The translations under genes were made by a program, and so were the position numbers. The notes under the pieces were generated by a model, which did not search any database, was not told the DNA's origin, and was given only the letters and a program-made list of their open reading frames with translations. A stretch of DNA of 57,239 bases from an uncultured Candidatus Saccharibacteria bacterium (GTDB lineage: Bacteria > Patescibacteriota > Saccharimonadia > Saccharimonadales > Saccharimonadaceae). Positions 5,676 through 55,410 of this stretch are shown in pieces. Every line of letters begins with the position of its first letter. Positions within the stretch are counted from its first letter, which is position 1. The stretch covers positions 1 through 57,239 of the forward strand of contig CAUTSQ010000001.1 of the NCBI GenBank assembly GCA_963541395.1, in the 5' to 3' direction.

Positions 5676-6371
5676 CTACAGCATCTTGGCGATATTGATC
5701 ACCAAGTAGGCTACTGCTGCGACAGCAATGAGACTCAATGCTATGACGTTGTACAACGTATGCAACGTCGTAGCTGCCGCTGTAGCGACAACCTGGCTAC
5801 GGTATTTGCGATAGTACCACAAGTACACCAGCAAAAAACCGAAGCCAGTCGCGGACAGGGCGACCCCTGCCGCCAGGCTGTACCAGATGTTTGTGATGTG
5901 CAGGAGTCCAAAGCACACACTAGCGCGTGCTCGTTCGCGCCAGCTCCACTTTTCGCTCCCGGAGCGAAAAGCTTGCTCCTCTAGTAGCGCGAAGAGCAAT
6001 AGCATGTTGTATGCCTCGCATCTGGTAGCTTTAGCATTGTGAAGAGATCTCTGCGATGACGTGTAGTTCGTGAAGTCTCCTATGAGGAAAACTCCCGCTG
6101 CACCAACAAACCAGGCAGCCCCTGTTGCCCATCTCGCGGGGAGGAACGTCTCAAAGATACTAGTCAGCAGCTCGACTACGGAGCTATCAAGCCCCGGAAT
6201 CATCAGTAGCACTTTTATCGTGGCGATTGTCACGATAATCAATACTGTTGCGATAGCGGTGAGCCATCGCTGATCAAAGTATCTGGCATCTCCGATTGCG
6301 CGGGCCAGATTAGGCCAAACAAAAGTTGGCCTAGTGTCTCGGGGCATAGCTCTTCTGAAGAGCCATGCCAT
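5676..6371 (-). CDS. CPBP (CAAX protease/Abi) family intramembrane metalloprotease, orphan cassette payload
   Basis: EEQAFR, FGLLH and HTLYN motifs plus hydrophobic helices; start uncertain (ATG 6371 after GAAAGGGGG, alternatives up to 6455). Confidence 0.75.
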   Translation of the reverse strand: MAWLFRRAMPRDTRPTFVWPNLARAIGDARYFDQRWLTAIATVLIIVTIATIKVLLMIPGLDSSVVELLTSIFETFLPARWATGAAWFVGAAGVFLIGDFTNYTSSQRSLHNAKATRCEAYNMLLLFALLEEQAFRSGSEKWSWRERARASVCFGLLHITNIWYSLAAGVALSATGFGFLLVYLWYYRKYRSQVVATAAATTLHTLYNVIALSLIAVAAVAYLVINIAKML

Positions 6372-20438: not shown

Positions 20439-20665
20439 GGCGACTATGTAGGTAGCGAAGTGCATGTAGACGCGTAGCGCGTTAGGTCTCTAGAGATTAA
20501 TATAGATAATCGCGATATAGTACTTTACAATCACACTCAGATGTGGCGACTGCGTGGGCAACGCAAGTATGCGTAGACGCGCTGCGCGTTGCTAAGAATC
20601 GGTAGATGTCGCGATATAGTACTTTACAATGACACGCAGATGTGGCGGAATTGGTAGACGCGCTA
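20439..20665 (+). repeat. Degenerate ~100-bp tandem repeat overlapping the tRNA 5' end
   Basis: tcgcgatatagtactttacaat at 20510 and 20609; ggcg...gtagacgcg recurs at about 20439, 20545 and 20644. Confidence 0.75.
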
Positions 20666-20722
20666 GCTTCAGGTGCTAGTGCCTTTCGGGGCGTGGAGGT
20701 TCAAGTCCTCTCATCTGTACCA
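20636..20722 (+). tRNA. tRNA-Leu(CAG)
   Basis: GCAGATG/CATCTGT acceptor stem, anticodon arm ctagc-TTCAGGT-gctag, long variable arm, GGTTCAAGTCC, encoded CCA. Confidence 0.96.
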
Positions 20723-23216: not shown

Positions 23217-23301
23217 GCGGATGTGGTGGAATTGGTAGACACGCATGCCTTAGGAGCATGTGCTTTCGAGCGTGAAGGTTCAAGTCCTTTCATCCGCACC
23301 A
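23217..23301 (+). tRNA. tRNA-Leu(TAG)
   Basis: GCGGATG/CATCCGC acceptor stem, catgc-CTTAGGA-gcatg anticodon arm, GGTTCAAGTCC, CCA. Confidence 0.96.
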
Positions 23302-27323: not shown

Positions 27324-27807
27324 GGGAAATTGCGAAAAAGTATTGACAATTTCATCACTCTATGCTATATTAATACTAGCTTTTCGCTCAAGGTTAAGTA
27401 AAAGGGCGGAAAGTCGCCCTTTGCCTTGAGCATGATTTCTAGGAGGAATCATGAGCGCCACATTCGCTATCGTCTCAGCTTCTCTCATCACCGTCGTCGT
27501 TTGTGCGGCGACGTGCGCACTGATGATTCCGTCAGCCCAGACCCACCGGGTCTGGGCGGCCCGGTGGGCTCAGGCCCGAGCGGCCTGGGCTCAGTCCCGG
27601 GCCAACCGGGCTCAGTCCCGGGCTCAGGTCCGAACCGCCCGGGCTCGGGCAGCTCGGAGGGAGGTCTTCAAGGGCTAACAGCCCGCCAGAAAATAGCTCG
27701 CCGAATTGGTTCAACACTGGTTGAGACACTTAATCATTAAGTGTTTCCCGGGTTGATATAAAACCCAATTCCGGTTTGAGCCATTTCGGCGGGCTATTTT
27801 CTTTGGT
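27324..27807 (+). other. Framed expression cassette A (promoter, hairpin leader, ORF, terminator)
   Basis: Flanks shared with 46621-47119 and 54774-55410. Confidence 0.85.
27451..27678 (+). CDS. Cassette A payload: 75-aa protein, hydrophobic N-terminus and Arg/Ala-rich repeats, ends KG
   Basis: AGGAGG SD 4 nt before the ATG; GGGCTCAG repeats; ends AAG GGC TAA. Confidence 0.75.
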   Translation: MSATFAIVSASLITVVVCAATCALMIPSAQTHRVWAARWAQARAAWAQSRANRAQSRAQVRTARARAARREVFKG

Positions 27808-46620: not shown

Positions 46621-47119
46621 TTAACATTTATACGATAATGTGCTATATTCATAATAGCTTTTCGCTCGAGTTTAGTCTAAAGGGCGAGAAGTGCCCTTTA
46701 ACTCGAGTGATGATTTTCTGAGGAGGAAATCATGAGCTTCATCATTGTCGTCTCCATCACTTTTGCTCTCGTCGCCCCCTGGGCGACGAAGTCTGTTTTC
46801 GACGCCGCCGGCCCGTTGGCCAGCTGGGGGTGGGTCGCGACGTTTGTCGCGGCCCACATCTGGGTCTGGAAGTGCATCTCATACGCCATCTCCAATGGCG
46901 CCAGTGAGATCATTTACATGCCAGCAATCATGCTGGCAGTGTACGAGCTTATCGTTATCGGCTTCGTGCCGATGACCTTCGAGGATGAGGACACATGCAG
47001 GTGCCTTACATGTGAGCAGCACCGCCACAAGGCGGTGAAGAAGGGCTAACCGCCCGCTGAAAATAGCTCGCTGAATTAGCGTTCAGCTTGAGCTCGTTCG
47101 GCGGGCTATTTTCTTTGGT
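46621..47119 (+). other. Framed expression cassette B
   Basis: Same promoter, leader and terminator frame as cassettes A and C. Confidence 0.85.
46732..47049 (+). CDS. Cassette B payload: 105-aa membrane protein with CxCxxC..H tail, ends KG
   Basis: GAGGAGG SD, three hydrophobic segments, ends AAG GGC TAA. Confidence 0.75.
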   Translation: MSFIIVVSITFALVAPWATKSVFDAAGPLASWGWVATFVAAHIWVWKCISYAISNGASEIIYMPAIMLAVYELIVIGFVPMTFEDEDTCRCLTCEQHRHKAVKKG

Positions 47120-54773: not shown

Positions 54774-55410
54774 AATTGCAAAAAGTATTGACTTCGCAGT
54801 CCATATGTGATATATATATATATTAGCTTTTCGCTCAAGTTTTCCACAAAAAAGGGCGTGAAGTTGCCCTTTTACTTGAGCGTGATTTCCTGAGGAGGAA
54901 TCATGAAGCGCTTTGTTGTTCGTGTCGCCCTTGAATTCGTGGCCATTGCGACCGCGGCCATTGTGGCCGCCCAGCTCGTCAAGTCGGGACACCCCGCCGT
55001 CGGCTTGGGGATCCTTGCCATCTACGGGATGATCGGCTTGTATAGACTGGGCGTTGAGAAGATCAATGCCCAGTACGAGAGGAATATCAAGGAGGCGAGG
55101 ATACGCCGCCTTGAGGCCGATTTGTCTGTCAAGGAGGCGCAGACGCGCCGCCTTGAGGCAGTACTCGTCGACGCCGCGACGAAGGCCTCGTGGGTCTCGG
55201 ATGTCAAAATCCGGGACAACAAGGCCGTCTATAAGATCGACGCGCCCGGCCGCGGGCGCATTGTCATCTATCTCCCCGCTACGGAGGAGGACGCCAAGAC
55301 CAACGACGCCCCCGTGGCGTCCAACAAGGGCTGACGCCCGCTAGAAAATAGCCCGCCTAGAGGCCACCAGCCTCGGCGCAAGGCCTTTCTGGCGGGCTAT
55401 TTTCTTTGGT
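54774..55410 (+). other. Framed expression cassette C
   Basis: Same promoter, leader and terminator frame as cassettes A and B. Confidence 0.85.
54903..55334 (+). CDS. Cassette C payload: 143-aa protein with two TM helices and a coiled coil, ends KG
   Basis: GAGGAGG SD, ends AAG GGC TGA. Confidence 0.78.
   Translation: MKRFVVRVALEFVAIATAAIVAAQLVKSGHPAVGLGILAIYGMIGLYRLGVEKINAQYERNIKEARIRRLEADLSVKEAQTRRLEAVLVDAATKASWVSDVKIRDNKAVYKIDAPGRGRIVIYLPATEEDAKTNDAPVASNKG

Follow-up and report, generated by a model that had tools for sequence, protein, structure and literature searches.

In Bacillus-type 5' mRNA stabilizers, such as those of aprE, ermC, and cryIIIA, a 5' end that is occluded and a strong Shine-Dalgarno (SD) sequence play a role (PMC3997798). 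In the hbs mRNA of B. subtilis, a structured 5' UTR, a strong SD, and pairing of the 5' UTR with the 3' UTR control RNase Y and RNase J1 (PMC5737220). We analyzed a window of 57,239 bases (positions 1 to 57,239 of contig CAUTSQ010000001.1 of an uncultured Saccharibacteria bacterium), in which a leader RNA at 3 sites resembles the stabilizers in having a stable stem-loop near the predicted 5' end and a strong SD, and in belonging to a host with RNase J and RNase Y in which RNase E was not detected. Unlike them, it has no sequence or Rfam relationship to the stabilizers, a predicted 5' tail of 7-8 nt, an SD partly locked in a hairpin, multiple copies, and a specific 3' arm with which it is paired. 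Its likeness to hbs lies in an mRNA that is small and presumably abundant and that combines a structured leader and a strong SD with a 3' UTR coupled to them in function, whereas the coupling of 5' and 3' arms in the cassettes described here is co-occurrence only. When 7 cassette transcripts were folded whole and searched for duplexes, the tail had no consistent partner for an hbs-like pairing between the 5' and 3' ends.

The same leader plan was common to all 3 window sites (Table 1). The leader comprises about 75 bases, running from a U-rich 5' tail (AGCUUUUCG) through an outer stem (P1), a bulge, and an inner stem (P2) to a third hairpin (P3), and each window leader begins with AGCTTTTCGCTC. 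The tail (7-8 nt) is predicted to be single-stranded and is followed by a P1 of 9 bp; the bulge lies always on the 5' side only, is mostly 5-10 nt long, and varies in sequence and length; P2, also of 9 bp (AAAGGGCG/CGCCCUUU), carries a polypurine loop of 4-6 nt. P1 and P2 stack with 0 unpaired bases on the 3' strand, and P3, directly after P1, encloses the SD and usually the AUG as well.

An earlier note on this DNA had written the outer stem as GCUCAAGG/CCUUGAGC in A (27386-27393/27424-27431), GCUCGAGU/ACUCGAGU in B (46664-46671/46701-46708), and GCUCAAGU/ACUUGAGC in C, and the inner stem as AAAGGGCG/(C/U)GCCCUUU with a GAA-containing loop, and all of these letters were found as written, the loops being GAAAGU, AGAAGU, and UGAAGU. 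The compensatory changes to which it drew attention, from A-U to G-C at stem position 5 in B and from G-C to U-A at position 8 in B and C, are real. It had also inferred a novel cis-regulatory, stabilizing, or protein-recognition RNA motif directly upstream of the SD. A putative cis-acting leader under structural selection is supported, but the P1-P2 hairpin is not immediately next to the SD, since that sequence and the AUG are contained in a second covarying hairpin, P3. P3, 5 further copies in the genome, and a coupled 3' element were absent from that note.

Single-sequence folding returned the same P1-bulge-P2 hairpin in 7 of 7 strong genome copies, with P1, P2, and P3 forming in all 7, at fold energies of -30.8 to -39.1 kcal/mol (z -4.0 to -6.2); in every one of these copies, 0 of 200 shuffles folded as well. 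RNAalifold on the 7 genome copies gave the same stems. Among 92 distinct hairpins, the tail A[G/A]CUUUU[C/U]G was nearly invariant, the P2 loops were always polypurine (for example AAGG, AGAAG, UGAAGU, and AGAG), and the energy of tail, P1, and P2 averaged -21.3 +/- 2.6 kcal/mol. Two other leader types were considered and rejected. A riboswitch would be expected to have an alternative expression platform and, within a conserved core of several helices, an invariant ligand pocket, but the leader has only 2 hairpins in series, its bulge differs between copies in both sequence and length, and no competing fold is prominent; as for a leader peptide, A and B have an upstream AUG, but it is not in frame, has no SD, and is unconserved, being GUG or CUUG in other copies.

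The genome examined comprised 822,038 bases in 63 contigs and was 89% complete, and 8 leader copies were identified in it. Besides those in the window, motif searches of the genome found 4 more strong copies on contigs C4, C7, C18, and C25, and a covariance model of tail, P1, and P2 (R1) found an eighth, weaker copy (H) at C7:10616; a fuller model (R2) also included P3. R1 matches (E<=1e-4) were present in 64 of the 105 genomes of the genus, with 6-10 matches each in 24 genomes and 1-4 in 40. Outside the genus, R2 matched 0 of 150 genomes of other genera in the order (120 other genera), and an earlier draw of 24 other families gave 1 weak match (E 6.6e-4), which was a plain hairpin without P2. 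Among the loci matching the leader pattern, R1 matched 66 of 66 titled Saccharibacteria and 0 of 14 with other titles; the latter were rejected as leaders, the 7 that were inspected being unrelated sequences. Viral contigs gave 0 matches to the leader pattern.

The proposal that the motif is novel was borne out by Rfam, which gave no family for it either at gathering score or at E<=10. Rfam 15 over the whole window returned no leader match at gathering score and only 2 tRNA genes (20636-20719 and 23217-23298), and a permissive scan (E<=10) of positions 27330-27480 returned 2 chance matches of 13-14 bits, against gathering scores of 40-55. No structured leader or RNA motif in Saccharibacteria was found in the main texts of the full-text literature, to which supplements might add transcript maps. 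The leader is new to Rfam and to the literature searched, and it is confined to 1 genus of Saccharibacteria. An exact 12-mer of the leader tail also occurs at 5962-5973 on the minus strand, within a coding region, where positions 5943-5973 (minus) form a plain coding-region hairpin (CUUUUCGCUCC/GGAGCGAAAAG) that is not a leader.

Table 1. Features of the 3 cassettes (A, B, and C) in the window, with promoters and structures as predicted
Feature	Position	Strand	Description
Promoter A	27343..27371	+	TTGACA, 17-nt spacer ending in TGC, TATATT; 11/12 consensus matches, TG extension
Leader A, 5' tail	27378..27385	+	AGCUUUUC; predicted single-stranded
Leader A, bulged hairpin	27386..27431	+	MFE and centroid structures, covariation
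Leader A, P1	27386-27394 with 27423-27431	+	
Leader A, bulge	27395-27400	+	
Leader A, P2	27401-27409 with 27414-27422	+	loop 27410-27413
Leader A, P3	27432..27452	+	AUGAUUUCU pairs with AGGAAUCAU; dG -6.8 kcal/mol, z -4.8; encloses SD AGGAGG (27441-27446) and pairs A and U of the start codon (27451-27453)
ORF A	27451..27678	+	75 aa, N-terminal hydrophobic helix, Arg/Ala-rich tail; GC3 0.75
3' arm A	27689..27806	+	long hairpin GAAAAUAGCUCGCCGAA ... UUCGGCGGGCUAUUUUC, U-rich tail; 153-nt stretch -75.2 kcal/mol
Promoter B	46621..46649	+	TTAACA, 17-nt spacer, TATATT with TG; 10/12 matches
Leader B	46656..46734	+	-34.8 kcal/mol, z -5.6; R2 score 63.9 bits
Leader B, tail	46656-46662	+	
Leader B, P1	46663-46671 with 46701-46709	+	
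Leader B, bulge	46672-46677	+	
Leader B, P2	46678-46686 with 46692-46700	+	
Leader B, P3	46710-46719 with 46724-46733	+	AUG 46732-46734
ORF B	46732..47049	+	105 aa, several hydrophobic segments; GC3 0.80
3' arm B	47059..47118	+	short form of the long hairpin; 94-nt stretch -42 kcal/mol
Promoter C	54788..54816	+	TTGACT, 17-nt spacer ending in TGA, TATATA; read from sequence
Leader C	54825..54905	+	-30.8 kcal/mol, z -4.1; R2 score 81 bits
Leader C, tail	54825-54831	+	
Leader C, P1	54832-54840 with 54874-54882	+	
Leader C, bulge	54841-54849	+	
Leader C, P2	54850-54858 with 54865-54873	+	
Leader C, P3	54883-54903	+	AUG 54903-54905
ORF C	54903..55334	+	143 aa, N-terminal membrane segments, charged C-terminal part; GC3 0.80
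3' arm C	55344..55410	+	100-nt stretch -52.7 kcal/mol

The leader is a real RNA structure under selection. This had been claimed in the earlier note from covariation, and the covariation holds with many more sequences (65 and 40 distinct leaders in 2 alignments) and partly also in an unfitted MAFFT alignment. The first alignment (A6) contained 86 matches, or 65 distinct leaders, fitted to R2. Because the pattern search that supplied most of its rows had held parts of P1 and P2 constant, a second set (A7; 48 matches, 40 distinct rows) was ascertained through the 3' arm alone. Both alignments lean toward the structure of the model and are made up of related rows, and the register of the outer part of P3 is still partly off (66.9% and 40.9% paired). 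In A6, 87.6% of cells were paired, compared with 78.9% in shuffles, and changes on both sides were found at 15 of 27 pairs, compared with 11.1 +/- 1.4 in shuffles (3 of 500 reached 15), with 170 doubly changed cells against 62.5. The covariation score of A6 was 0.333 against 0.190 when shuffled (0 of 500 shuffles reached it) and at most 0.129 with partners slid, and the covarying pairs numbered 4 in P1, 3 in P2, and 8 of 9 in P3. A7 had double changes at 16 of 27 pairs (reached by 0 of 500 shuffles) and a score of 0.294 against 0.204 when shuffled (0 of 500) and at most 0.128 when slid, with 7 of 9 pairs covarying in P1 and 7 of 9 in P3. One A7 row (L177) had a P1 that was almost wholly different yet still complementary. 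From the unfitted MAFFT alignment (A5, 62 rows), RNAalifold recovered 8 P1 pairs, 4 of them with double changes, and 4 P2 pairs, 2 with double changes; P3, the loop of which varies in length, was not recovered from this alignment. Further, G.U cells outnumbered A.C cells by 239 to 30, so that it is the sense-strand RNA that is under selection; on the opposite strand, these pairs would be 75.5% paired, compared with 87.6% in the sense direction.

The energy of P3 was computed over the interval between the end of P1 and the start codon. Over 65 distinct leaders it had a median of -8.4 kcal/mol and a mean z of -3.6, compared with a median of -3.7 kcal/mol in 483 other SD-bearing start regions of the genome. 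Values of -6 kcal/mol or lower were found in 76.9% of leaders and 26.5% of the background, though the background windows were longer. The 65 leaders contained 51 distinct P3 stems, and in 5 of them a convincing P3 was missing (dG above -4 kcal/mol). Two forms of P3 were identified. In most copies, the 3' strand reaches the AU of the AUG, whereas in the second form (UCACC.../...GGUGA) the whole SD is paired and the start codon follows after another 7-9 nt. In both, the SD and/or the start codon is paired in a conserved, covarying helix, as in SD-sequestering leaders. The 3' strand ends at the AU of the AUG in most copies, and the hairpin is therefore independent of the ORF. P3 resembles the fourU and ROSE RNA thermometers in its U/C-rich strand on the SD, frequent G.U pairs, and dG of about -8 kcal/mol; unlike them, it is a plain hairpin without their characteristic mismatches, and they have no counterpart of P1-P2.

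The -10 boxes of A and B end 7 nt upstream of the leader, a geometry that a transcription start at the A of AGCTTTT, as proposed in the earlier note, would fit. Promoter C has an 8-nt (TA)n discriminator after its -10 box and was not flagged by the consensus scan because TATATA fails the scan rule of T at position 6. Across the 67 upstream regions in which a promoter was called, the distance from the -35 box to the leader was 25 nt in 10, 27 nt in 13, 29 nt in 35 (a count that includes 4 regex artefacts, reassigned), 30 nt in 7, and 31 nt in 2. As this distance varies, the length of the tail may differ between copies.

The leader belongs to a cassette in which a strong promoter, the leader, a variable GC3-rich ORF for a small membrane protein, and a long 3' hairpin terminator follow one another. 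After the ORF comes a small hairpin, GGGC-N4-GCCC, and then a long hairpin, GAAAAUAGCYCGCC...GGCGGGCUAUUUUC, with a U-rich tail; folded between a point 25 nt ahead of the stop codon and the U-rich tail, with the long hairpin included, these stretches gave -42 to -75 kcal/mol. In its variable inner part, the 3' arm has either a short stem or a three-way junction. The conserved small hairpin with which the 3' arm opens, GGGC-UNAN-GCCC (at about 27669-27683, 47040-47055, and 55325-55340), holds in its loop the stop codons of ORFs A, B, and C, and the 3 proteins therefore all end in Lys-Gly. We identified 7 occurrences of the 3' arm in the genome, 7 of 7 behind a leader (the window sites and those on C4, C7, C18, and C25), and cassette E carries another terminator instead of the 3' arm. 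Out of 54 exact 3'-arm matches in other loci, 40 were preceded on the same strand by an R2 leader at most 1 kb away, 9 were too near the edge of the locus to be judged, and 5 were uncoupled, 4 of these in records not titled Saccharibacteria.

The 8 cassette products of the genome ranged from 55 to 155 aa, with 6 longer than 60 aa, and a hydrophobic N-terminus was identified in 7 of them, the product of copy H being without one. The ORFs belong to several families that cannot be aligned with each other. Their GC3 was 0.66-0.82, compared with 0.51 +/- 0.078 (99th percentile 0.666) in 647 non-overlapping ORFs of the genome; foreign origin, codon selection, or avoidance of A/U-rich RNase sites may be the cause. 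ORF C had 74 homologues at 53-100% identity, none of them named and none with a Pfam domain, and ORF A matched no Pfam or NCBIfam family. The cargo ORFs had only sub-threshold matches in Pfam, NCBIfam, PHROGs, and PADLOC, and protein atlas scores of at most 0.81, which serve as leads only.

The genes flanking sites A, B, and C were 90-96% identical across species, and the ORF between the arms was replaced or unalignable; in alignments across species, the ends were conserved and the middles could not be aligned. At site C, 11 of 18 loci had an ORF of 125-143 aa, 5 an unrelated one of 59-63 aa, 1 an ORF of 46 aa, and 1 no call. In 3 of 5 more distant genomes of the genus without the motif, the convergent neighbor gene follows directly, with no cassette between. 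At syntenic sites (loci L052-L124), the ORFs of different species range from unrelated ones to ones that differ in length, which suggests that cassettes are replaced or that diversifying selection is strong.

The genome encodes RNase J (476.7 bits) and RNase Y (594.9 bits), both over their cut-offs, and RNase III, and RNase E/G was not found in the genome at its 89% completeness; 5'-end-dependent RNase J and RNase Y are what a 5' stabilizer would be expected to meet in its host. Given these RNases, the failure to find RNase E/G and CsrA, and the stabilizer and hbs precedents, P1-P2 is read as a stabilizer and P3 as a gate. We tentatively regard this combination, a P1-P2 5' stabilizer with an ORF-independent P3 translation gate working together with the 3' hairpin, as the most likely function of the leader, with confidence that stays limited. 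A strong sigma-70-type promoter would start the mRNA, and its first ~75 nt would fold into 2 modules. The first, a stable bulged hairpin of tail, P1, and P2 (about -21 kcal/mol) a few nt from the predicted 5' end, would block 5'-end-dependent decay by RNase J and RNase Y, thereby prolonging the life of the mRNA. The second, P3, consists wholly of leader nucleotides; its anti-SD-like U/C-rich strand is predicted to pair with a portion of the SD and, in the majority of copies, also with the A and U of the AUG, and it would set or gate initiation to an equal level regardless of the ORF behind it. In combination with the 3' hairpin arm, which is very stable, the leader would then yield long-lived, evenly throttled mRNAs for variable small membrane proteins.

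Several observations count against this reading. The predicted tail of 7-8 nt, if transcription starts at the A of AGCUUUU, is rather long for a stabilizer, since 5' stabilizers usually tolerate only shorter 5' tails, and with the SD occluded by P3, ribosomes would protect the mRNA less. A pure stabilizer also leaves unexplained the near-invariant tail, the polypurine loop, and the 5'-sided bulge, which suggest a sequence-specific partner instead. Further, 5 of the 65 leaders are without a convincing P3, and the spacing between the -35 box and the leader varies.

Such a partner is central to the main rival explanation, in which the leader is an operator for a trans-acting protein or small RNA that reads the tail, bulge, and loop, and the whole cassette set is switched together, for instance on host contact, by opening or locking P3. 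The same leader on 8 dispersed genes, with 6-10 matches in each of 24 genomes, points in this direction, as do letters conserved where pairing does not need them (tail and polypurine loops) and a P3 stable enough to need help for efficient initiation. However, no candidate partner emerged: CsrA (PF02599) was not detected in the genome (89% complete), no exact antisense match to the tail was found outside the coding hairpin at 5943-5973, and nothing links any regulator gene to the cassettes. The bulge, which such a partner would read, is variable in sequence and in length (mostly 5-10 nt). We consider an operator possible, though unlikely. Control by CsrA in particular was rejected, with PF02599 not found and P2 loops often lacking GGA.

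A further proposal treats the arms as a plug-in cassette of epibiotic Saccharibacteria, with hypervariable ORFs for small membrane proteins exchanged between fixed chromosomal sites by recombination in the arms and the locked, stable mRNAs released together by a trans signal such as host contact. We hold this to be doubtful; if it were true, the RNA motif would be the handle of a host-interaction regulon and not only a stabilizer.

P1-P2 might instead be a processing site for RNase III, cleavage creating a new 5' end and thereby activating or destroying the mRNA. The stems stack to about 18 bp with a one-sided bulge, the 3' arm is likewise a long duplex, and the enzyme is encoded in the genome. 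For RNase III, however, 18 bp with an interrupting bulge of mostly 5-10 nt is short, and the rnc gene beside cassette E is a single case. We consider this explanation improbable.

It is more improbable still that the arms are important chiefly at the DNA level, serving ORF swaps as homology arms or recognition sites, with the RNA fold incidental. Such swaps would account for the replaced or unalignable ORFs between flanks of 90-96% identity and for promoter types reassorted between cassettes of the same leader and ORF (for example L052 and L111). Integron attC cassettes, Borrelia upstream homology boxes, and Mycoplasma vlp genes likewise have constant flanks and variable ORFs replaced at fixed sites; in contrast, the leader cassettes are single and dispersed with no linked integrase, and their constant 5' part is a covarying RNA structure. 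The excess of G.U over A.C cells and the loss of pairing on the opposite strand point to the sense RNA, the helices are kept by compensatory changes, no recombinase is linked to the cassettes, and viral contigs gave no match. A role of the arms as DNA can nonetheless coexist with an RNA function.

We regard as decidedly improbable, and slightly more so than the preceding one, the reading of the cassettes as type I toxin-like genes, in which a hydrophobic peptide would be silenced by a locked SD and an antisense RNA. They share with the hok, tisB, and aapA1 toxin mRNAs dispersed multi-copy loci, a locked SD, and hydrophobic products, and they are intergenic with strong promoters, SD-occluding leaders, and hydrophobic N-termini. 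However, the products are 46-155 aa long, many with large charged C-terminal parts, whereas type I toxin peptides are usually under 60 aa, a length exceeded by 6 of the 8 genome products. A consensus scan identified no shared antisense promoter in the 3 window cassettes, no consistent 5'/3' fold-back was found, and the length of ORF C is conserved across 74 homologues, as in an ordinary protein. In many copies P2 is a G+C-rich stem with an A-run on one side and a U-run on the other, as would suit attenuation of transcription at P2 and the U's that follow it. This reading is very improbable and was rejected: a scan for terminators flagged none at P2 in A, B, or C, the U's and the A's of divergent copies covary as pairs of the helix (for example UUGGAGCG/CGCUCCUG), and no alternative antiterminator fold stands out.

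To our knowledge, next to nothing is known of how Saccharibacteria and other ultra-small epibiotic bacteria control their genes after transcription. The leader is a genus-specific, multi-copy structured RNA that tags fast-changing small membrane proteins unnamed in databases, and its covariance model provides a simple search handle for all such genes. Different ORFs at sites with 90-96% identical neighbors form the pattern expected of genes for interaction with a host or competitor. The leader also offers a defined target for tests of how these organisms stabilize and gate mRNAs with a Bacillus-like RNase set, and it could serve as a native expression part in the emerging genetics of the group.

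A few minor observations were also made. A (TA)n tract (window 54811-54824 and its equivalents) forms the -10 box and discriminator and differs in length between copies; such length changes could shift the transcription start or the promoter strength by slippage. The RNase III gene (rnc, C7:12930-13583, minus strand) lies convergent to and directly after cassette E, a single case that may be coincidence. In cassette D (C4:19025-19060, minus strand), the SD is followed by a 12-codon ORF whose end overlaps, as ATGA, with a membrane ORF of 55 aa; this points to coupled translation or to a start that was misplaced.
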